Shown here one piece after another: positions 9,594 through 37,322 of a stretch of 37,322 nucleotides of DNA; position 1 is the stretch's first letter, and each line of letters opens with the position of its first letter. A model generated the notes under the pieces. That model ran no database searches. It was not told where the DNA came from and saw only the letters and a program-made list of their open reading frames with translations. The DNA is taken from the IMG/VR virus record IMGVR_UViG_2908567220_000001, positions 1 through 37,322 of that record; one strand, written 5' to 3'. The stretch comes from a virus (taxonomy: Duplodnaviria > Heunggongvirae > Uroviricota > Caudoviricetes). The translations under genes and the position numbers were made by a program.

Positions 9594-13274
<3,681 letters not shown>

Positions 13275-13300
<26 letters not shown>

Positions 13301-13820
13301 TCAGCAACCCCGGTATCAGTTCATCCAGCGCGGCTGCTTTGTTCATGGCTTTGATGATATCCCGTTTCAGGAAATCAACATGTCGGTTTTCCAGTTCCGG
13401 AAAACGCCGCTGTACCGAGAGAGGGATCCCGTCAAGAATACTGGCAATTTCACCTGCGATCCGTGACAGCACGAAAGTACAGAATGCGGTTTCCACCACC
13501 TCTGCGGAGTCTCTGGCATTCTTCAGCTCCTGTGCGTCGGCCTGCGCACGCGTAAGTCGATGGCGTTCGTACTCAATAGTCCCAGGCTGGAGATCTGCCT
13601 CACTGGCAGCCCTGTAATCCACAACCTCTTTACGGAGTTTTTCATTTTCGATATCAGCTTCCCTCTGCGCATACCACTGAATTGCCATGGCGGTATCAAA
13701 TACAGATTCAACGCCCTTACCACCTCCGGAGACGCAAGGGAGTCCCTGAGACTGCCAGCGTTCAATCGTTCGCGGATCCACGTTGAAAATTTCGGCAAGT
13801 TTCTTTTTATTAACCTTCAT
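13275..13820 (-). CDS. Nu1: terminase small subunit Nu1
   Basis: 181-aa ORF; C-terminal two thirds near-identical to recalled lambda gpNu1, N-terminal DNA-binding domain diverged; adjacent to cos. Confidence 0.9.
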
Positions 13821-13847
13821 GAAACAGTCTCACAATAAATACAGGGG

Positions 13848-13957
13848 CCGACATGAAAGTGCCCGAAAATGACTTTTTTAGGCGTTTTCATGTCGGACCT
13901 TTTACGGATTCGATATTAGAAAAAACAAATAGTTATGTTCGAGAAGTACCGACATGA
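13848..13957. promoter_or_regulatory. cosB-like region with three copies of CCGACATGA (two direct, one inverted)
   Basis: CCGACATGA at 13848-13856 and 13949-13957, inverted copy TCATGTCGG at 13888-13896, between Nu1 start and cosN. Confidence 0.5.
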
Positions 13958-13996
13958 TTTTCCCCGGAAAATTTTCATAAATAGCGAAAACCCGCG

Positions 13997-14008
13997 AGGT
14001 CGCCGCCC
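13997..14008. other. cosN cohesive-end site
   Basis: Minus strand from 14008 reads GGGCGGCGACCTCGCGGGTTTTCGCTATTTATGAAAATTTTCCGG, matching the recalled lambda left end; the other flank matches the lambda right-end terminus. Confidence 0.8.
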
Positions 14009-14214
14009 CGTAACCGGTCGGATCGCCGGAAAGGACCCACGAAATGATAATGATTATCATCTATATAAGGTTTATCACAACATGTGAGTACGCCATCAAA
14101 CCACGAGAAATAATCAATTATGACGCAGGTATCGTATTAATTGATCTGCGTCAAATTAACGTAAAAGCAACTTCAGATAATACAAATCAGCAACACTGAA
14201 TATGGGGAAACATT

Positions 14215-14400
14215 ATGTCATCAAAGAACAGAACCCGCAGAACAACAACCCGCAACATCCGATTTCCAAACCAGATGATTGAACAAATTAACATCGCTCT
14301 TGATCTGAAAGGTTCAGGAAACTTTTCAGCGTGGGTTATTGAAGCCTGCAGAAGAAGGCTGTCAACAGAGAGTTCGGGTATGAATTACATAATTAAGTAA
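14215..14400 (+). CDS. small putative DNA-binding protein, ribbon-helix-helix-like
   Basis: 61-aa ORF with GGGGAAA RBS 6 nt upstream of ATG; basic N-terminus then predicted strand-helix-helix (RNIRFPNQMIEQINIALDLKG...NFSAWVIEACRRRL); fold assignment is inference. Confidence 0.6.
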   Translation: MSSKNRTRRTTTRNIRFPNQMIEQINIALDLKGSGNFSAWVIEACRRRLSTESSGMNYIIK

Positions 14401-15023: not shown

Positions 15024-15482
15024 TTATTTCAGGCACTGAGTGCGGATATAGTCCTGTGCCCCTTCCAGTTGCTTGTGCATCGTCATCAGCCGCTCTCTGA
15101 GGGTGAAATAATCCCGTGTAACGGTGTCTGCCAGTTGGGGGCCGGTTGCATTATCCACGCCGGAGGTGGTGGGGGCTTCACGCACGGAGCCTGGACAGGT
15201 GGCGTTGATCCGCAGGCGCTTACGACCAGCGGCAACATCAGCGCGCAGAGTTTCATTTTCAGCTCTCGCATCGGATAATTCCCTCGAGTATTTTGCATCG
15301 AGCGCAGCAACATCGCGCTGGCGCACCTGCATATCAGTAATGGTTGCGTTCGCCAGCTTCAGTTCACTGGCTTTGTTATCACGCTGCGCTTTGTAGGTAA
15401 TCGCGTTATCACGGTAATGGTCTGTTGCCATCCACAGCGCACCACAGGCCACCAGCAGAATAACGATAAACGCGGAAAGCAT
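15024..15482 (-). CDS. Rz: i-spanin Rz
   Basis: N-terminal TM segment then coiled-coil ([14 protein letters not shown]...), lambda Rz-like; ATG at 15482 gives 152 aa; alternative GTG at 15497 overlaps the upstream ORF stop. Confidence 0.8.
15086..15271 (-). CDS. Rz1: o-spanin Rz1 lipoprotein, embedded in the +1 frame of Rz
   Basis: [22 protein letters not shown]... lipobox Cys, Pro-rich (PPPPPAW); entirely inside Rz. Confidence 0.75.
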
Positions 15483-15493
15483 TCGGTTTATGT

Positions 15494-15625
15494 TCACCCC
15501 AGCAACCCCGACGAAGACAACATCATCCAGGCCATGGAAAGAAAAAGAGCAACCAGCATTAGTGAAAATGAAATGCCGACAATTACACAGAGGATCTTCG
15601 CCAGCGTTATGAGTTTGTCTGACAT
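15494..15625 (-). CDS. small hydrophobic membrane protein (43 aa), function unknown
   Basis: ATG at 15625 with [45 protein letters not shown]...; stop overlaps the Rz GTG. Confidence 0.5.
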
Positions 15626-15639
15626 GCTTAATCCTCCCT

Positions 15640-15822
15640 TCACGATTTCAACGCAATGACCAGTTTTGCCAGCCCATACAGCATCGGGGACACAGCAACA
15701 CCGACCGCCACCCACTTAATGGCAAAAGCCAGTGCTCTGCTGATGTCATCAGTTACAGGCGCTTTCAGTTCAAGGCCATTTTTCATAGTCAACCTCAACA
15801 GAATTCGTTTATACTTCGCCAT
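15640..15822 (-). CDS. small tail-anchored membrane protein (60 aa), function unknown
   Basis: ATG at 15822 with AGGGAG RBS; basic N-terminus ([11 protein letters not shown]) and C-terminal hydrophobic segment ([22 protein letters not shown]). Confidence 0.5.
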
Positions 15823-15855
15823 GTTCTCCCTTGCCTTACTCAAGGTCAGAAACAC

Positions 15856-15888
15856 AAAACCCCGCTTGGTGCCAACAAACGGGGTTTT
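15856..15888. terminator. hairpin with 9-bp stem (AAAACCCCG / CGGGGTTTT), candidate bidirectional intrinsic terminator or attenuator
   Basis: Perfect 9-bp inverted repeat with 15-nt loop, T-rich tract on the plus side; sits between the endolysin stop and the small membrane genes. Confidence 0.4.
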
Positions 15889-15978
15889 TACTTTTATTCA
15901 CTTACGTTTCGCCAGTTCGCAGGATTTCGTGTTATCCGCCCGCGTGGCCATACCTTATTTTTCAGCAAAATATTCTGC

Positions 15979-16512
15979 TTATCTGTCGATACCCCAGCAC
16001 GCCAGCGCGCTCTCCTGGTCACGACGGGATACCTGACCGTAGCAGTTGTTTGAACGAATACGGCAGTCTCTGCCACCGTCCTTAATCCACCAGCGAATCG
16101 CCTCACACGCTCCCCTGCGATCACCTGCATTAATTCGTTTATAAAACGTCGACGGAAAACACTTACCGGGGCCAATGTTGTACGGACAGAATGACGCGAT
16201 CCCCGCTTTCTGGGGTTCACTCAATGGCACTCTGATGTTTTTCTCCACCCATGCCAGCGCCTTATCACGCTCAATGGCGTTAACCCGGTCGCATTTTTCC
16301 TTCGACAACTTCATGCCCGGAACGACAGGTTTGCCATCCACCAGGATGGCACCGCGGCAGATGGTCCAGATACCCGCGCCATCACGGTATGCCGTGGTGT
16401 GGTTACCTTCCTTTTCATCCAGAAACTGGTCGAGAATGTCAGGCGCAGGCGCACCAGCGGCAATCAGCGCCAGAACGGCAGCCGACAGGCCGTATCTGAT
16501 TTTTGCGTTCAT
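15979..16512 (-). CDS. SAR endolysin (T4-lysozyme-like GH24 muramidase)
   Basis: 177-aa ORF; Ala/Gly-rich N-terminal signal-anchor-release segment (LSAAVLALIAAGAPAP); E...D...T catalytic spacing (KEG, RDG, WTI); downstream of a pinholin. Confidence 0.85.
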   Translation of the reverse strand: MNAKIRYGLSAAVLALIAAGAPAPDILDQFLDEKEGNHTTAYRDGAGIWTICRGAILVDGKPVVPGMKLSKEKCDRVNAIERDKALAWVEKNIRVPLSEPQKAGIASFCPYNIGPGKCFPSTFYKRINAGDRRGACEAIRWWIKDGGRDCRIRSNNCYGQVSRRDQESALACWGIDR

Positions 16513-16617
16513 GGATATTTATCAGGATTTATCGGTTTCTGAGCCCTGGATATGTTTATCAGTTCCAGCCTGTTGCCTCAGGCTGCTAACAGGTCAATAC
16601 AATCATGAGGATTATTT

Positions 16618-16890
16618 ATGGACAATAACACCATTTCTCTACAGGAGTTGCTCGACAGCATTTCCAGGCTTCGGGAAGACGTGAATACCCTTACCGTCGC
16701 CTTCTCATATCTGGCATTCTCAATTCCAAGGGAACAGATGCAATCAACGCTGGCATCAATCCAGTTTGAATCATGCAATCCCAAATGGTCTCAGAAACAA
16801 CAAGACTCTTTCAGGCGGCTTGCTGTATTACTGGATGAAAAATATGCTGGTAAAATTACCATTTCGGCGGACTCTTCAGAGAACCCGTAA
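16618..16890 (+). CDS. hypothetical protein (90 aa), opposite strand inside the lysis cassette
   Basis: ATG at 16618 with GAGG RBS about 7 nt upstream; weak hairpin plus T-run after the stop; no recognised motif. Confidence 0.45.
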   Translation: MDNNTISLQELLDSISRLREDVNTLTVAFSYLAFSIPREQMQSTLASIQFESCNPKWSQKQQDSFRRLAVLLDEKYAGKITISADSSENP

Positions 16891-17200
16891 TTATTCCCGG
16901 TAGTTTTCCTCTGTAGGTTATCAACACATCCTGCGCCTCTAAAATTACGGGGCGCTTTTCCGGCGACTGCTCATCCCCTTCACATAACCCGGCAGCAACA
17001 TCCAGGAAGACCTGTCTGATGCTCCTTCTGGCTGCTGCCTCATAAAACTCCAGCGCGGCACCTTCAACACGGTCCAGCGAGATGTCCAGGTCAAAAATTT
17101 CACCGTCAAAGCGTTTTTTGTCCCGTAACGCTAAAGTTACCGTAACTTTATTCTCAAAATTGCGGATCCCTTTCACAATCAGTTCATAGTTTTGAGTCAT
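16856..17200 (-). CDS. DUF1327-like lysis-cassette protein (YdfR-like)
   Basis: 114-aa ORF directly downstream of the holin; N-terminus MTQNYELIVKGIRNFENKVTV... resembles recalled YdfR-family proteins; C-terminus may be altered. Confidence 0.65.
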   Translation of the reverse strand: MTQNYELIVKGIRNFENKVTVTLALRDKKRFDGEIFDLDISLDRVEGAALEFYEAAARRSIRQVFLDVAAGLCEGDEQSPEKRPVILEAQDVLITYRGKLPGIITGSLKSPPKW

Positions 17201-17204
17201 TGAA

Positions 17205-17420
17205 TTACTCTCCCCGTGCAGCCTTACGCTTGTCTTCTCTGATTTTGAAGTACAGATTTGTCAGATAAGTCAGGAAGCCCAGAACCAGACTCCCCAGCAC
17301 ACCAATCGCAGCCCACTGTGACGGACTGACCTGATCAAGCCACTGTAAAAACCAGTAGCCAGCACTGCCTGCGGAGGTGCCATAGGCAATGCCCGTTGAA
17401 ATTTTGTCCATGGATTTCAT
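17205..17420 (-). CDS. S: pinholin, phage-21 S21 type, dual-start motif
   Basis: 71-aa [66 protein letters not shown]...; matches recalled S21; Met1/Met4 dual start; GGAGG RBS. Confidence 0.9.
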
Positions 17421-17712: not shown

Positions 17713-17787
<75 letters not shown>

Positions 17788-17790
17788 ATA

Positions 17791-17866
<76 letters not shown>

Positions 17867-18113
17867 ATTGGTTCTTCAGGGGAGCGATATCACCGAGCAA
17901 AGAAGAGTTCCCCCTCAGAACCGTTTTCGATGATACAATTTAATATTCCAATCGCAACAACACTTTGCGTCAAGCTATGTAAATTTATTTATGTATTTTT
18001 ATTTTATGTGAACATTTCACCTTCACTTAAAATATACGCGACAATATATAAACAAATTTATTTTGAAGGCAATATTAAATGTCGTTTCTTATATCACACC
18101 ACAATAACAACAA

Positions 18114-18133
18114 AACCCGCTTGATGGCGGGTT
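18114..18133 (-). terminator. tR'-like hairpin downstream of the putative late promoter
   Basis: AACCCGC/GCGGGTT 7-bp stem with 6-nt loop, followed on the minus strand by TTGTTGTT; between Q stop and the tRNAs. Confidence 0.45.
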
Positions 18134-18218
18134 CTATTAAAGTTTAATTGCGCTTGATTCGCCTCGCGATACAGCTTTGCGAAGCGTAGCAAAATTGAAG
18201 CAGTTTATGCGTAAAAAA

Positions 18219-18761
18219 TCAAGCCGTTTTTTGAGCGAATGATTCTCGCATGGGAATGTATAGCGCATACTCAGCAACGGCCAACCAATTAGCAATTCGC
18301 TTTTCGCATGTGCTAAAACACCACTCTGGGTGTGCATCATTTAGCAATTCAGCCATTTTGCGTTTGGTCATCCCCCGCCCCTCATACCGTTGCCGAAGGA
18401 CGCTAATCAATCCTGGATGCTCTGCCAGCACCTCACTTATGACTCGATCAATACATAACGCCTCTGCATCAGTACAATGCGCCAGCCAGCTCTTTTGCTT
18501 GCCGTTGATCATCTCTCGCAAAAACGCTTCCAGCTCAGCTTTCTCTATTCCCGCTTTTTTCATTCTGCGCAGGGCTTCATTGATGGCTGTTTTCGTCAAT
18601 TTTTTGGATGCCAACAACTGATTGAACATATTTCCTGACCTGCCACCGCCAATATACGACCAGCGCCCCCACATACGCAGTTTGCCCTGAATCCAGACAC
18701 TTTCCAGCGTGGCGAGACGAAGGTGTTCTCCGCTTTTTCCTGTATTCGTTGGGTAAATCAC
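18219..18761 (-). CDS. late-gene antiterminator, Q-like
   Basis: GTG at 18761 with AGGAGG RBS, coupled to the upstream stop (GTGA); RMWGRWSY motif resembles the W-G-A-W motif of Q-family proteins; sits just upstream of the late region. Confidence 0.6.
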   Translation of the reverse strand: MIYPTNTGKSGEHLRLATLESVWIQGKLRMWGRWSYIGGGRSGNMFNQLLASKKLTKTAINEALRRMKKAGIEKAELEAFLREMINGKQKSWLAHCTDAEALCIDRVISEVLAEHPGLISVLRQRYEGRGMTKRKMAELLNDAHPEWCFSTCEKRIANWLAVAEYALYIPMRESFAQKTA

Positions 18762-19048
18762 AAATATCCCTCCTTTCTCCAGATTTCTTGTGTGCGAAAA
18801 ACACCTTCTGCATGCATCAGGCGTAATTCTTCTTTGGTGTAATCGCTGGTTTTTACCCGCCCGTCGATTAGATCGTGGCATGAGCTACAGGCAATCGCCG
18901 CCTGCATATCGTGTGGTTTTGTCGCTGTTCCGCACGTTCCCGCCAGTCGGTAATGCGCCAGCACAGACGTTTCCGGATCGTGATTGCAGTAGCCAGGAAT
19001 TCTGACGGCGCACATCTGCCCCCGCGCCGCTTTACGTAAATCCACCAT
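18758..19048 (-). CDS. nin-region zinc-binding protein (YbcO/DUF1364-like)
   Basis: 96-aa ORF with Cys pairs (CAVRIPGYC ... CSSCH); coupled to neighbours on both sides (TAATG, GTGA). Confidence 0.7.
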   Translation of the reverse strand: MVDLRKAARGQMCAVRIPGYCNHDPETSVLAHYRLAGTCGTATKPHDMQAAIACSSCHDLIDGRVKTSDYTKEELRLMHAEGVFRTQEIWRKEGYL

Positions 19049-19647
19049 TACGCAAACTCCAGCAGCTGCGCGGCCACATTTTCGACTTGTTCCGGAGAGG
19101 AAAATTTACGGAACAGAATCCAGTTCCACAGCACATTCAGAACAGATTTATAAACCTGCTGAAACTCGGTTTCATCCATATTCGCAAAAGCGATGGATTT
19201 CGCCCGACGCCCATGGCTACCGTCCGGATAAAAATGTTCGGTGTAAAATCCAGCCTGAATGGTTACCCACTCGCGGAAAGCCTCAAACGACTTTAGCAAC
19301 GCCGTATCCCGGGTTCTACGAGTCGCAACGGTGTTAAGGTATTGCTCTGCGGCATCACTCAGGGCTGGCGTGTGTTCCCGACCAACTGATTCGCACAGGT
19401 AATCAACGAAACCAGACAGCAGTTCTCGTTCGCGAGGCGTGATCGCCCCACCGACCGGAGTCCAGTAATCGAATCCCAGTTGCAGGAGTTTGAAAAAACG
19501 CTTGTGGAATGCGTAGTTACGCACACGCTTAAAGTCTGCGTGTATCCACTCACCTATTTTGATTTGATGCAGAAAATCGCAACTCTCCGGCGTCGCCGGG
19601 AGAAGTAAACCAGAAGAAGTTTGTTTGACCAGTTGTATATGCGCCAT
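19048..19647 (-). CDS. nin-region hypothetical protein (199 aa)
   Basis: Complete ORF, coupled to the downstream gene; function not assigned from sequence. Confidence 0.7.
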   Translation of the reverse strand: MAHIQLVKQTSSGLLLPATPESCDFLHQIKIGEWIHADFKRVRNYAFHKRFFKLLQLGFDYWTPVGGAITPRERELLSGFVDYLCESVGREHTPALSDAAEQYLNTVATRRTRDTALLKSFEAFREWVTIQAGFYTEHFYPDGSHGRRAKSIAFANMDETEFQQVYKSVLNVLWNWILFRKFSSPEQVENVAAQLLEFA

Positions 19648-19920
19648 TTCTCAATCTCTCGATGGCGCAGTGCAGCAGATGCCAGTTGTTCAGGCTGACG
19701 TATAAAGTATAAATAAACTGGTTCCAGTGTAAAGCCCCCACCTTAATGGAATAAAAACCAAACAACAGATTGCTGGGATACAAACAACGCTTATTATTAA
19801 AAGCGGTTAAACAAATTAAATTTTAATGTTATGCAAATTTGTCAGATCACCATAATATCTCATTTGAAAACCGCTGAAATAACAACCCTATCAGGGTTAA
19901 TCATATTAAGGTGAGTAAAT

Positions 19921-20007
19921 ATGGAAAACAACAAATCTGCACATTACGTTCCTTTTTTATCTGTAATACTTTTTGTTTTATGCTGTGCGTGGGCATTATT
20001 TTTATAA
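19921..20007 (+). CDS. possible small hydrophobic peptide (28 aa)
   Basis: AAGGTGA RBS 7 nt upstream of ATG; MENNKSAHYVPFLSVILFVLCCAWALFL; in the AT-rich region upstream of the IS5-split gene. Confidence 0.3.
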   Translation: MENNKSAHYVPFLSVILFVLCCAWALFL

Positions 20008-20301
20008 AAATATTCACAGATAAAATATACCCGCCAAACCTGGTTAAGTGCGGGTGCGTTGAGGAGGCCTGACACATCAGAGGTGGCGAGGGATTCTTCA
20101 TCATCTAACCAGCAACCTTAACTTTGGGATTCACTAATTTAAGTACGCTAAAGGTGTTAAAACCCCGAGCCACCCAGGGACTGCTTGAAAAGTATATAAA
20201 AATCAATATCAACTATCGATTTTACCTAAATGTTATGATATAAAAAGTTAGCGTATCATTACGCATCCACAATATTCGAAGGTTTCCATATTCAATGTAA
20301 G

Positions 20302-21152
20302 ATGTCGACAAAGGCCTATTATTCTATGGATATCATAACAAAAATCATTGAAGACGCTCAAAAATTACAGTTATCCTCTGCAAATGAAGCTGAAACACGC
20401 CTTAAGATCATAGATCAAATACTCTTTGAAGTATTGAAATGGACTAGGGATGATGTATCGGTAGAAACTCGAGTTAGCGAAGATGGCGAGACTACTTTTG
20501 CTGATTATGTCATTAAAACAGCAAGTACTGCGTTTATAATTGAAGCCAAAAAAATTGGTCAGGCATTCGACACAAAACAATTCGATAGGAGACTGAAACT
20601 CAACAACAATAATCTTTCCGGTCCTTTTGGAGATGCCATAATTCAAGCAAGAGATTATTGTAGAAAACTGAGCATTCAATTTGCTGTTGTAACTAATGGT
20701 GAACAATGGGTTATATTCCCAGCAAATAGAACGGATCAAGTTGCATTCAACTCATCTTACGCAATTGTATTTAACAATTTACAAAGTGCACTTAAAGATG
20801 ACTATACAGAATTTTATGACTTATTATCAAGAAAAGCAGTTATAAACTCTAGCCTTGAAGTTACTTTATTAGGCAACAGGGAAGATCAAATAGAAGAAAG
20901 ACGCTTAAAAAATACAGTCCGTAAAAGTATCTCTTATGATGCAAAGAATCCAATATACCCATTAGTCGAAGAAGCAATTATCACTTCATTTTCAGATACA
21001 ATAACAGAAATCGACAATGATCTTTTTGAAAGATGTTATGTAAATACTCCTGACAGGATGAAATTTGATAGGCGTATTAATATGCACATCTCAAAAAGTC
21101 AACACCTCTTTAGTACGGCGCCTATAAGACCGATGCAAAAAAGAGATGCTAA
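20302..21152 (+). pseudogene. 5' fragment of IS5-disrupted gene: HsdR-N-like PD-(D/E)xK nuclease domain
   Basis: AT-rich ORF; motifs ETRLKIIDQILFEVLKW, FADYVIKT, FIIEAKK, QFAVVTNGEQWVIF; frame runs into IS5 and stops 9 codons inside it. Confidence 0.75.
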
Positions 21153-22347
<1,195 letters not shown>

Positions 22348-22351
22348 CTAA

Positions 22352-23975
22352 TGCTTTTAAAGAATCATTATTACGAGCAAAAAAGAATTCAAAACCTTTA
22401 GCTATTGTTATATTAGGAACTGTTGGCGCAGGTAAAACCACATTTTTACATTACACACGAAATATATCTGCCGCATCGTATTTCGAAAAATCAAATAATA
22501 AACCCTATCCTCATTGGATAAAGGTGGATTTTTTACAATACACGAATGACGAGTCCCCTATAGACTACATTTATAATATAATAAAAAACTATATTATAAG
22601 TGATCCATTTTTTTGCAATTATGAGCTATGCATACAGAACGCATACAAAGATGAGATAACTTCTATAAAAAAAGGACCTGCATTTCTTATTGCGAAGGAT
22701 GAAGAAAAAATCAATCAACTAATTACAAACAAGCTACAAGCTGATTTTGACAAAGTTAAGCCATATGCTGATACTTTAATCAGCTATGCAACGAAAAACA
22801 CACCTGTTTTTCTTGTTGTGGATAACGTTGATCAACTCAGCGAAGAAGTCCAATCTCAAATTTTCACTGATTGTGTAGCATTTTCCCAGAGACTCAAATG
22901 TAATCTTGTTATATCATTACGTAATTCTACATATGTTGAACACCGTAACTCCCCAGCGTTTAACGCATTTGATTTCGATCCTATTCTTATTGAACCACCA
23001 AAAGTAGAGGCTGTTTTATCTAAACGTTTTTTCTTAGCCAAAAATATGCTTGAAGGAGAAGAAGGTGATTTTCTTTCAGATAATGGGATAAGATTTCACG
23101 TTGATAACAAAGCCGATTTAATAAGCTTATTACAAAGCTCTGTTTTAGGAACAGAAATCGGCAATTTACTTGAAGTACTTGCTGCCGGAGACATCAGAAA
23201 TGCACTAAGAATGACAAGAGAATTTATTGAACATGGTTATACAAATCCAGGTAAAGCTATGCGAATATATAGTGAAGGTGGCAACTATATATTGCCTAAG
23301 CATGAGGCTCTCAGAGCGATACTGCTAGGGAACCAAGCTGTATATTCAGAGGCTTATTCATTGGTTGGCAACCCATTTGATTCAAGACTGGGAAGGACCA
23401 ACTTCCAACTTTTGAGACTATTCGTTTTAGCAGCATTAGTCCAATATAGTGCTGATCCTGCATTTCAATATATCGACGGAATTGACATCCGAAAACAACT
23501 TAGAAAAATTGGTGTCGGTGATGATGACTCAATTGCCATACTGCGTGATTTATGTAAATTACGCTTTATAAGCACGGCTGGTCATGATGTACCAGAATTC
23601 AAATCAAGTTTTTATCCTACAAGACTTGGGGGATATATTACTAAGGAGCTAATCAGTAATTTTACATTTGTTGAATGTACTATGATGGACTCATTCATTG
23701 CGAACGAAAAAGTTTGGGAAGATCTAAAAGGATTTGAACGTTTAATTATAAACTCCTCCAGCGATGTAATCAAAAGACTAGAATATAGAAAGGAACGAGC
23801 ACAAATATTTTTTGATTATATGCTAGAACTATATAGTTCGCTGCTTGAGGAAGCCAATAAACGTGTATTACCTAAAGAATGGCGCACCAATCCTTTGCAG
23901 GAAGCTAGATATTCCTTCATTGAAAATCTAAACAAAGCCCTGCAATCAGCACAGAGAAATTACGGGGAAAAATAA
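22352..23975 (+). pseudogene. 3' fragment of IS5-disrupted gene: P-loop NTPase plus C-terminal helical domain
   Basis: In frame with the 5' fragment once IS5 and one CTAA copy are removed; Walker A GTVGAGKTT (22416-22442); Walker B-like VFLVVDNVDQ; AT-rich; terminator follows the stop. Confidence 0.75.
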
Positions 23976-23980
23976 AAAAA

Positions 23981-24002
23981 AGCCACACCTTACGGTGTGG
24001 CT
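23981..24002. terminator. bidirectional intrinsic terminator hairpin (AGCCACACC-TTAC-GGTGTGGCT)
   Basis: Perfect 9-bp stem flanked by an A-run upstream and T-rich tract downstream; between convergent genes. Confidence 0.6.
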
Positions 24003-24074
24003 CCTCTGTTGGTTTTATAGGATCATTCCTTTTTGAGGTGGTCATTATATTCCCTATCTATTTTCCTGGCAATA

Positions 24075-24479
24075 CTAATTTCCTTGATAAAACGCCAGCA
24101 CTCGCTGCATAGCTTCGCTTTTCCGGCACTCGCGACAGATTATGTTCAGACGCCTGTCGTAGCGGCGTATTTCTCCGTCTGGTAATGACCAGATAAGGTC
24201 CGGATCAACCACAGATAGTTTCTTCACCTTTGCCCTAGATAGTTTTTTGCGGGCATTTTGCCAATCCTTACGAGCCTGTTCAGACGGGAATAACCCGTAA
24301 CCAGAGTTGTATACATCGCCACTGGCAACCAGCTCTCTGGCGAGAACGCTCATCAGATATCTTGTCGCACCTGTCTTGACTTCCAGTTGCCGTAACGTCT
24401 CACGCCCACTCTGGCGTACGAGTTCAACAACCTGTCCTTTAATTTTTTCTCGCTCTTCTGGTGTAAATACTTTTGCCAT
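24075..24479 (-). CDS. hypothetical phage protein (134 aa)
   Basis: ATG at 24479 (MAKVFTPEEREK...) with GGAGG RBS; C-terminal Cys pair (CRECRK). Confidence 0.7.
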   Translation of the reverse strand: MAKVFTPEEREKIKGQVVELVRQSGRETLRQLEVKTGATRYLMSVLARELVASGDVYNSGYGLFPSEQARKDWQNARKKLSRAKVKKLSVVDPDLIWSLPDGEIRRYDRRLNIICRECRKSEAMQRVLAFYQGN

Positions 24480-24494
24480 AGGTGCCTCCGGCAA

Positions 24495-35393: not shown

Positions 35394-35588
35394 ATGAGAT
35401 ATGACAATATTAAACCATGTCCATTTTGTGGTTGCCCATCAGTAACGGTGAAAGCCATTTCAGGATATTACCGAGCGAAGTGTAACGGATGCGAATCCCG
35501 AACCGGTTATGGTGGAAGTGAAAAAGAAGCACTCGAAAGATGGAATAAACGAACCACTGGAAATAATAATGGAGGTGTTCATGTATAA
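35394..35588 (+). CDS. ralR: restriction-alleviation protein (Lar/RalR-like), Cys4 zinc ribbon
   Basis: ATG at 35394 gives 64 aa; CPFCG...CNGC motif; position after recT. Confidence 0.65.
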   Translation: MRYDNIKPCPFCGCPSVTVKAISGYYRAKCNGCESRTGYGGSEKEALERWNKRTTGNNNGGVHV

Positions 35589-35745
35589 AATTACCGCCAC
35601 TATTGAAAAGGAAGGTGGCACTCCTACTAACTGGACAAGATATTCAAAATCTAAACTAACGAAATCAGAATGCGAAAAAATGCTCTCAGGTAAAAAAAGA
35701 AGCAGGCGTTTCCAGAGAGCAGAAAGTAAAACTGATAAATTTTAA
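35581..35745 (+). CDS. small basic hypothetical protein (54 aa)
   Basis: ATG at 35581 with GGAGG RBS, overlaps the ralR stop; MYKITATIEKEGGTPTNWTRYSKSKLTKSECEKML... Confidence 0.55.
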   Translation: MYKITATIEKEGGTPTNWTRYSKSKLTKSECEKMLSGKKRSRRFQRAESKTDKF

Positions 35746-35869
35746 TTGCGAGAAACTTCAGTCCTCGAGAATTGCATTGTATTCAAATTAAAACTTCATA
35801 GCTGATTATTAATAATCAACATCGGGCGTCAATTTCAGTCTAACATTGGCGCCTGCCAGAGGTGATGCG

Positions 35870-36085
35870 ATGGCACAAGTAATCTTTAATGAAGAGTGGA
35901 TGGTTGAATACGGCCTGATGCTTCGCACTGGTCTGGGGGCCAGACAAATTGAAGCATACCGCCAGAACTGTTGGGTGGAGGGCTTCCACTTCAAACGAGT
36001 ATCTCCTTTAGGTAAGCCAGACAGCAAACGAGGGATTATCTGGTACAACTATCCAAAGATAAATCAGTTTATCAAAGACTCATGA
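35870..36085 (+). CDS. xisR: excisionase
   Basis: ATG at 35870 with AGAGGTGA RBS; 71 aa; immediately upstream of the integrase. Confidence 0.75.
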
Positions 36086-36086
36086 T

Positions 36087-37322
36087 ATGTCTAAATTACC
36101 AACAGGTGTCGAGATTAGAGGTAGATACATTCGCATCTGGTTCATGTTTCGAGGAAAACGATGTCGGGAAACATTAAAAGGCTGGGAGATTACAAACAGT
36201 AATATTAAAAAGGCCGGAAATTTAAGAGCGCTGATAGTTCATGAAATAAACTCCGGTGAATTTGAGTATTTAAGACGTTTTCCCCAGTCCAGCACTGGGG
36301 CAAAAATGGTGACAACGAGAGTCATAAAAACGTTCGGAGAGCTTTGTGATATCTGGACAAAAATTAAAGAGACAGAGTTAACAACAAACACAATGAAGAA
36401 AACGAAATCACAATTAAAAACACTCAGAATAATAATTTGTGAAAGTACCCCGATATCACATATTCGTTATAGCGATATCTTAAACTACCGGAATGAACTG
36501 CTGCATGGAGAAACGCTTTACCTGGATAATCCAAGATCCAACAAAAAAGGAAGAACCGTGCGCACAGTTGATAACTATATCGCCCTGCTCTGTTCGCTGT
36601 TGCGTTTTGCGTATCAGTCGGGATTTATATCAACCAAACCATTTGAAGGAGTAAAAAAATTACAGCGAAACAGAATAAAGCCTGATCCGTTATCTAAAAC
36701 AGAATTCAATGCATTAATGGAAAGTGAAAAAGGACAGAGCCAGAACTTGTGGAAATTTGCCGTTTACTCAGGACTTCGTCACGGGGAACTGGCAGCTCTG
36801 GCGTGGGAGGATGTGGATCTCGAAAAGGGAATAGTGAATGTCAGAAGAAACCTGACGATACTTGATATGTTCGGCCCCCCAAAAACAAATGCCGGGATCC
36901 GAACAGTAACACTACTGCAGCCTGCTCTTGAAGCACTGAAGGAGCAATACAAACTGACCGGGCATCATCGCAAAAGCGAAATCACCTTTTATCATCGGGA
37001 GTACGGCAGAACCGAAAAGCAAAAACTGCATTTTGTTTTCATGCCCAGGGTGTGTAACGGAAAACAAAAACCTTATTACTCGGTAAGCAGTTTGGGGGCA
37101 AGGTGGAATGCAGCAGTAAAACGTGCTGGTATTCGCCGCCGTAATCCGTACCATACGCGGCATACTTTTGCCTGCTGGCTGTTGACGGCAGGAGCGAACC
37201 CGGCATTTATAGCCAGCCAAATGGGGCATGAAACTGCGCAGATGGTGTATGAAATTTACGGTATGTGGATTGATGACATGAACGACGAACAGATAGCCAT
37301 GTTGAATGCGCGGTTATCGTAG
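36087..37322 (+). CDS. intR: tyrosine site-specific integrase
   Basis: 411-aa ORF; catalytic-domain residues (R...H..R...HTRHT...Y) near the C-terminus; stop codon is the last 3 bases of the window. Confidence 0.9.
   Translation: MSKLPTGVEIRGRYIRIWFMFRGKRCRETLKGWEITNSNIKKAGNLRALIVHEINSGEFEYLRRFPQSSTGAKMVTTRVIKTFGELCDIWTKIKETELTTNTMKKTKSQLKTLRIIICESTPISHIRYSDILNYRNELLHGETLYLDNPRSNKKGRTVRTVDNYIALLCSLLRFAYQSGFISTKPFEGVKKLQRNRIKPDPLSKTEFNALMESEKGQSQNLWKFAVYSGLRHGELAALAWEDVDLEKGIVNVRRNLTILDMFGPPKTNAGIRTVTLLQPALEALKEQYKLTGHHRKSEITFYHREYGRTEKQKLHFVFMPRVCNGKQKPYYSVSSLGARWNAAVKRAGIRRRNPYHTRHTFACWLLTAGANPAFIASQMGHETAQMVYEIYGMWIDDMNDEQIAMLNARLS

Follow-up and report, generated by a model that had tools for sequence, protein, structure and literature searches.

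A candidate phage 21-type cosB site and a chimeric small terminase in a lambda-like prophage

Work by Feiss and colleagues has traced the difference in packaging specificity between phages lambda and 21 to the R sequences and to the recognition helix of the small terminase subunit, TerS (PMC4669245, PMC9026076). As summarised in these two reports, bp 56 and bp 59 of the R3 site and residues 20 and 24 of TerS constitute the genetically defined contacts and clashes which set the lambda/21 discrimination, and the same positions are described in the former as critical for recognition (PMC4669245). Together, the differences in the R boxes and in the helix give a more than 10^3-fold discrimination in packaging between the two phages (PMC4669245). 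It has also been described that a DNA bend introduced by IHF at the I1 site enables the DNA-binding domains of TerS to dock as a dimer on R3 and R2, and that the C-terminal part of TerS binds the large subunit, TerL, so placing it to nick cosN (PMC4669245, PMC9026076). A chimeric TerS whose N-terminal half is 21-type and whose C-terminal half is lambda-type has been reported to have 21 specificity and to function with lambda TerL, and the same was reported of hy51, a viable lambda-21 hybrid (PMC9026076, PMC4669245). In both phage 21 records (M81255, OL657228) the terminase boxes R3, R2 (in opposite orientation) and R1 are annotated, with I1, a site for IHF, separating R3 from R2.

The stretch of DNA analysed here, referred to as the window, comprises the 37,322 nucleotides of the IMG/VR record IMGVR_UViG_2908567220_000001. 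Its segment 13821-14038, on the minus strand, is very probably (at a probability of about 0.9) the cos site of a lambda-like prophage, with a cosB subsite of the phage 21 specificity type. All features of the cos/terminase region read on the minus strand and, in map orientation (reverse complement of 14060→13800), they follow one another as cosQ, cosN, 188 bp of non-coding DNA, the TerS ATG and an overlapping TerL ORF. The packaging termination subsite cosQ is assigned to the heptamer GGGTCCT at 14032-14038 (minus strand), which equals the cosQ annotated in phage 21 (OL657228) in both sequence and offset (-24 to -30 from the nick), and which is present in the lambda right end too. The 12-nt cohesive end of cosN, GGGCGGCGACCT, corresponds to bp 1-12 of the mature left end (13997-14008, minus strand) and matches bp 1-12 of both lambda and phage 21 exactly, in keeping with the preliminary description of this DNA, in which cosN had been called identical to that of lambda. 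All informative sites in the cosN flank, from the cohesive end up to and including bp 44, are lambda-type.

Further toward TerS, the resemblance is to phage 21 in subsite order, orientation, cosN-to-R3 spacing, R core (TCATGTCGG) and the positions of I1 and of the TerS start codon. R3, the critical TerS site adjoining cosN, is represented by the box AATCATGTCGGTACTT (bp 50-65; 13944-13959, minus strand), which agrees at 15 of 16 positions with the annotated phage 21 R3, AATCGTGTCGGTACTT, likewise at bp 50-65. The core of this box starts at bp 55 in the window and in phage 21 alike, so that its distance from the nick is unchanged. Both carry G at bp 56 and at bp 59, where lambda has T and C, and they differ at bp 54, which is A in the window and G in phage 21. 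A putative IHF binding and bending site, I1, is found at bp 74-86 (13923-13935; AAACAAATAGTTA on the plus strand), with one mismatch to the consensus WATCAANNNNTTR and 12 of 13 positions shared with the I1 of phage 21; it is the sole match to the consensus with at most one mismatch in the cosB of the window, and it lies between R3 and R2, precisely at the place given for I1 in the phage 21 annotation. The R2 box, TTTCATGTCGGACCTT (bp 108-123; 13886-13901, plus strand), is inverted with respect to R3 and R1 and identical at all 16 positions to the R2 of phage 21 (AAGGTCCGACATGAAA on the map strand), with a 1-bp shift. The R1 box, TTTCATGTCGGCCCCTG (bp 151-167; 13842-13858, minus strand), has the orientation of R3 and matches the R1 of phage 21, TTTCATGTCGGGCCTTG, at 15 of 17 positions, again with a 1-bp shift, the two differences lying in its flank. 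The cores of the boxes are located at bp 55, 113 (inverted) and 156, in the order R3-I1-R2-R1 of the annotated phage 21 boxes, and the TerS ATG, at 13820, is bp 189 in the window as well as in phage 21. Because R2 and R1 are oppositely oriented, the two boxes with their flanks also make up a 30-nt imperfect inverted repeat (77% complementary, with a 5-nt spacer; 13840-13904) just upstream of the TerS start.

The 9-mer CCGACATGA, which is the R core on the opposite strand, occurs exactly three times in the window, always between cosN and the ATG (13848-13856, plus; 13888-13896, minus; 13949-13957, plus) and inside 13821-14008. Three cosB repeats of a non-lambda kind had been noticed in the preliminary description, which missed the inversion of the middle copy; they are exact cores and, when the cos and gp1/Nu1 sequences are aligned to those of phage 21 and lambda, they fall on the annotated R boxes of phage 21. 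A chance cluster was rejected, since the three copies lie within 110 bp and only 0.36 exact copies per window are expected on average; among 100 dinucleotide-preserving shuffles of the 37-kb window, one reached three copies anywhere in it. The lambda-type R core (GTTTCC/GGAAAC; CGTTTCC) is absent from the 188 bp that separate cosN from the ATG, and the alignment to lambda falls to 45-60% identity across 13950-13630.

The small terminase gene (13275-13820, minus strand) encodes a 181-residue TerS/Nu1 homologue (Pfam Phage_Nu1, E=6.5e-90), which combines a phage 21-type winged-HTH DNA-binding domain with lambda-type oligomerisation and TerL-binding domains. Residues 1-66 are identical to phage 21 gp1 at 59 positions and to lambda Nu1 at 40, and for residues 72-181 the relation is reversed (108/110 to lambda Nu1, 55/110 to phage 21), as it is for residues 101-181 considered separately (79/81 and 31/81, respectively). 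The earlier impression of a nearly lambda-identical C-terminal region preceded by a diverged DNA-binding domain is thereby borne out. The recognition helix, RTIERWQS (residues 17-24), is the same as that of phage 21 in eight of eight residues and shares five of eight with that of lambda (RTIQNWQE); residues 20 and 24 are the phage 21-type E20 and S24, where lambda has Q20 and E24. The sequence of PDB entry 7LWR is identical to residues 1-54 of phage 21 gp1, and this entry was therefore taken as the phage 21 DNA-binding domain; 49 of its 54 residues are shared with the TerS of the window, and three of the five differences are situated in the wing (residues 31-39). Wing residues 32-34 (13719-13727) are GGG, as in lambda, and KGS in phage 21, with lambda-type nucleotides at three informative sites in the wing codons, within an otherwise 21-type domain. 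This could represent a micro-patch of lambda sequence or variation within the lineage. K35, for which a minor-groove contact has been proposed (PMC9026076), is conserved in the window.

The large subunit (11375-13300, minus strand; 641 residues; Pfam GpA_ATPase and GpA_nuclease) is a TerL/gpA homologue of lambda type, with 98% identity to lambda gpA and 66% to phage 21 gp2, and 41 of its first 48 residues are identical to lambda. All three Pfam matches are full-length and score above the curated cut-offs (Phage_Nu1 299.5 bits against a cut-off of 30, GpA_nuclease 251.6, GpA_ATPase 173.1), so that on homology the two proteins are the subunits of a lambda-family cos terminase. Given that TerL is lambda-type, as is the C-terminal domain with which TerS binds it, the enzyme is a lambda/21 chimera and does not correspond to the phage 21 holoenzyme (gp1 + gp2).

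The extent of the mosaic segments was determined from sliding-window identity and from informative sites, in both cases against lambda and phage 21. From 14349 to bp 44 the DNA is lambda-like, from bp 46 to approximately bp 380-400 it is 21-like, and further on, starting at about bp 404 and continuing past the end of TerL, its identity to lambda is 95-100%. Informative-site analysis assigns to 13606-13963 (minus strand) a 21-type specificity cassette that consists of cosB and TerS codons 1 to ~66-71 and is lambda-type on both flanks. This cassette (13963 to ~13610) is 75-95% identical to phage 21 and 45-60% to lambda, with cosB ~75-90% identical to phage 21 across R2-R1. The 21-type insert measures ~340-360 bp and ends at the cosN/cosB boundary and at codons 65-72, near the end of the DNA-binding domain; the TerS gene is a natural chimera. 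When compared to phage 21, the locus is thus distinguished by a TerS which is lambda-type past residue ~71, by a lambda-type TerL and by the lambda-like character of the DNA left of cosB, in the cosN flank and the right chromosome end, in addition to the wing and the R3 base already described. Its similarities to lambda comprise the cohesive end, cosQ, the tripartite cosB architecture, TerS residues 72-181 and TerL, whereas the R core (CGTTTCC in lambda) and the recognition helix are different.

The closest counterparts in arrangement are the lambda-21 hybrids such as hy51, in which a 21-type cosB and the 5' part of TerS, helix-turn-helix included, are likewise joined to the remainder of a lambda-type TerS and to lambda TerL (PMC4669245, PMC9026076). 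It was with such hybrids that the functional domains had first been mapped. The cassette of the window is nonetheless shorter than that of the laboratory hybrids (~340-360 bp vs ~600 bp), begins at bp 46 where theirs begins at the chromosome end, and is natural and widespread. The cosB of N15/Monarch belongs to the same terminase family and has R3 in the same cosN-proximal position (PMC4669245), but N15 has a single R site and another recognition helix, in contrast to the three 21-type R boxes found here, and its TerS is 50% identical to that of the window.

Database comparisons have provided further information on the distribution of this arrangement. BLAST of phage records showed that phage 21 (M81255, X02501, OL657228) spans the full cos region at ~85% nucleotide identity, whereas lambda-type phages match its first half, on the cosN side, only. 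Among 160 related IMG/VR loci, which constituted the linkage sample, 33 are hybrid as here, 80 belong entirely to the 21 type and 47 to the lambda type. All 113 loci with the helix RTIERWQS carry at least two TGTCGG cores upstream (at least three in 111 of them), and 112 are devoid of the lambda core; the 47 loci with RTIQNWQE all have two to three lambda cores and none of the 21-type. Helix type and repeat type therefore go together, nearly without exception, in these 160 loci. The determinants are adjacent and the haplotypes few, for which reason the association is to be read as linkage and not as many independent events of co-variation. In a MAFFT alignment, all IMG/VR hybrids share a right junction near lambda bp 401-406, and their left junction is located at bp 44/46, at bp 24/42 or at cosN, or is absent. 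A cos-proximal recombination hot spot has been measured by De Paepe et al. (PMC3945230), and the variable left junctions agree with it. The hybrid lineage consistently has CATGTCGG in R3, where canonical phage 21 has CGTGTCGG.

Variation was also seen at the cohesive end. In about 15 of the IMG/VR relatives (L010-L169), GGGCGGAAGGCG takes the place of GGGCGGCGACCT, ~188 bp upstream of the TerS ATG and with five of the 12 bases different, and these loci include both 21-type and lambda-type TerS helices; a few other relatives have GGGCGGCAGCGG or single-base variants. The cohesive-end sequence in this terminase lineage varies independently of cosB type.

In complete E. coli genomes the arrangement is common. 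A 501-bp segment, comprising cos and the 5' part of TerS, is 99.8% identical in E. coli SF-088 and is covered to at least 80% in 1,131 of 5,426 complete genomes. A 181-bp probe across the 21/lambda junction in TerS is covered to at least 80% in 735 of the 5,426, O157:H7 strains included, a figure that is an upper bound for the hybrid, one sampled match at 88% coverage being just 81.5% identical. The cryptic K-12 prophage genes nohD/nohA (DLP12/Qin) were considered as 21-type and rejected, as the junction search matches their lambda-like part only; the nu1/cos of DLP12 has been treated as lambda-homologous in the literature (PMC3945230). In the isolated phage IdasGreatGrand (PP925829), the cos DNA is 98.8% and TerS 99.4% identical to the window. 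Considering this near-identity, together with head and tail ORFs downstream which are intact, lambda-type and lambda-sized, the cos site and terminase of the window are likely to be functional.

If the established lambda/21 model is carried over to this locus, a bend made by IHF at I1 would bring R3 and R2 to face each other, and TerS bound to the R boxes would anchor the lambda-type TerL on cosN via its lambda-type C-terminal domain. TerL would then introduce nicks 12 nt apart and translocate the DNA into the prohead. All four specificity determinants (G at bp 56, G at bp 59, E20 and S24) are 21-type in the window. Since the recognition helix and the R boxes are both of this type, the enzyme is expected to accept 21-specific DNA for packaging and to discriminate against that of lambda specificity, and since the TerL-binding part of TerS and TerL are both lambda-type, the subunits should match each other. 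The terminase is accordingly predicted to recognise a 21-type cosB and to cut and package with lambda-type machinery, and the same predictive standing applies to the activity of this particular copy. Sequence, arrangement, homology, mosaicism and linkage derive from the present analysis, and the roles of the determinants from the literature. The phage 21-like packaging specificity proposed in the preliminary description is consequently supported by the aligned R3, R2 and R1 boxes, the position of I1, the helix and the four determinants.

Other readings of the locus have to be considered. That the repeats might be transcription-factor operators, or a chance cluster, unrelated to a terminase which keeps lambda specificity would find some encouragement in the R2/R1 inverted repeat, whose location just upstream of the TerS start makes it look operator-like in isolation. 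This is already contradicted by the alignments and has next to no probability, considering that the lambda-type R core is missing, that the TerS helix differs from that of lambda, that the repeats map onto the boxes annotated for terminase in phage 21 and that 0.36 copies would be expected in 37 kb. A more serious, though still improbable, proposal is that the prophage is defective and the site has become an inactive relic, with inherited repeats no longer serving packaging; the window does represent a prophage in integrated form, its early region is Rac-like, and defective examples are numerous among E. coli prophages of this kind. The fact that both terminase genes and the head and tail ORFs, which are of lambda size, are open, the intactness of every cos subsite at correct spacing, and the existence of a phage isolated as such (IdasGreatGrand) with virtually the same cos and TerS all speak against it.

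A specificity for packaging that is related to that of phage 21 but distinct from it, and hence a third one, might be conferred by bp 54 of R3, the R1 flank and the GGG of the TerS wing. Such a view could draw on the incomplete identity of cosB to phage 21 across R2-R1 (~75-90%), on the 49 of 54 N-terminal TerS residues shared, with three of the changes in the wing, and on the consistent use of CATGTCGG by the hybrid lineage where canonical 21 has CGTGTCGG. It is rendered quite improbable, more so than a relic, by the identity to phage 21 of the whole recognition helix and of the contact positions bp 56 and 59, as these are defined in PMC4669245, by the R3 change itself, which brings this box closer to the core of phage 21's own R2 and R1, and by the retention of the minor-groove contact K35 (PMC9026076). 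Slight differences in affinity from phage 21, through bp 54 of R3, the R1 flank and the TerS wing, are conceivable. A cosB of the phage 21 specificity type, served by a chimeric TerS and a lambda-type TerL, is therefore retained as the preferred reading.

Mosaicism extends to the remainder of the prophage. The early region (17900-37322) resembles that of Rac-type prophages, with exodeoxyribonuclease VIII/RecE, RecT and an integrase, and is 92-97% identical to phages vB_EcoS-683R6 and Rac-SA53; its combination with lambda-type head and tail genes makes the prophage a Rac/lambda/21 mosaic. The lysis cassette (15024-17420, minus strand) is itself mosaic. It contains a class II pinholin (17420->17205) identical to S21 in 70 of 71 residues, a 114-residue ORF (17200->16856), at whose place a YdfR-family gene is found in the near-identical prophage of E. 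coli SF-088, a lysozyme (16512->15979) with 30% identity to the SAR endolysin of phage 21 (R21), and an Rz-like gene with ~84% nucleotide identity to lambda and 21 alike. The S21-type holin invoked in the preliminary description is confirmed in its identity, yet as support for the cosB type it is weak, as it belongs to a separate mosaic module. A contiguous 21-derived block from holin to cosB was rejected, the intervening DNA being lambda-like or unrelated to 21. Given an endolysin with only 30% identity to R21 and lambda-like DNA between 14349 and cosN, the holin and the cosB cassette are regarded as independent modules which provide no evidence for each other. Between the lysis genes and cos, a YlcI/YnfO-family ORF of 61 residues (Pfam DUF3950, E=9e-19; 14215-14400, plus strand) is transcribed against the late genes and lies partly inside a stretch homologous to the right end of lambda (48169 and beyond). 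Genes for tRNA-Gly(UCC) and tRNA-Thr(UGU) are present immediately upstream of the holin (17713-17866, minus strand), in the position occupied by tRNA-Asn and tRNA-Thr in phage 21 and by tRNA-Ile, Arg and Arg in E. coli SF-088.

It may be speculated that cosB and the DNA-binding-domain sequence form a naturally exchangeable module of packaging specificity, with boundaries held by selection where cosN adjoins cosB and toward the end of the DNA-binding domain, and with swapping among lambda-type prophages favoured as it stops cross-packaging among co-resident lambda-like prophages or terminase-hijacking islands. The single right junction, near codon 71, in all hybrids and the several left junctions beside cosN are compatible with this idea, as is the number of lambda-like cos regions per E. 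coli genome, which is typically several (median 2, up to 8). We nevertheless regard it as doubtful, if somewhat less so than the relic explanation. A 21-type cosB, a 21-type TerS domain and a chimeric terminase are already known, being textbook lambdoid-phage biology and abundant in public genomes, and the present assignment matters little beyond correct annotation. Within that scope, it marks the point at which the prophage DNA would be cut for packaging, predicts a terminase specificity of phage 21 rather than lambda, and bears on predicting which co-resident prophages, cosmids and hijacking islands this terminase can package. The locus is also a clean natural case of a modular small terminase, in which the DNA-recognition domain and its DNA site have been exchanged as one unit, a design that had earlier been established with laboratory lambda-21 hybrids.
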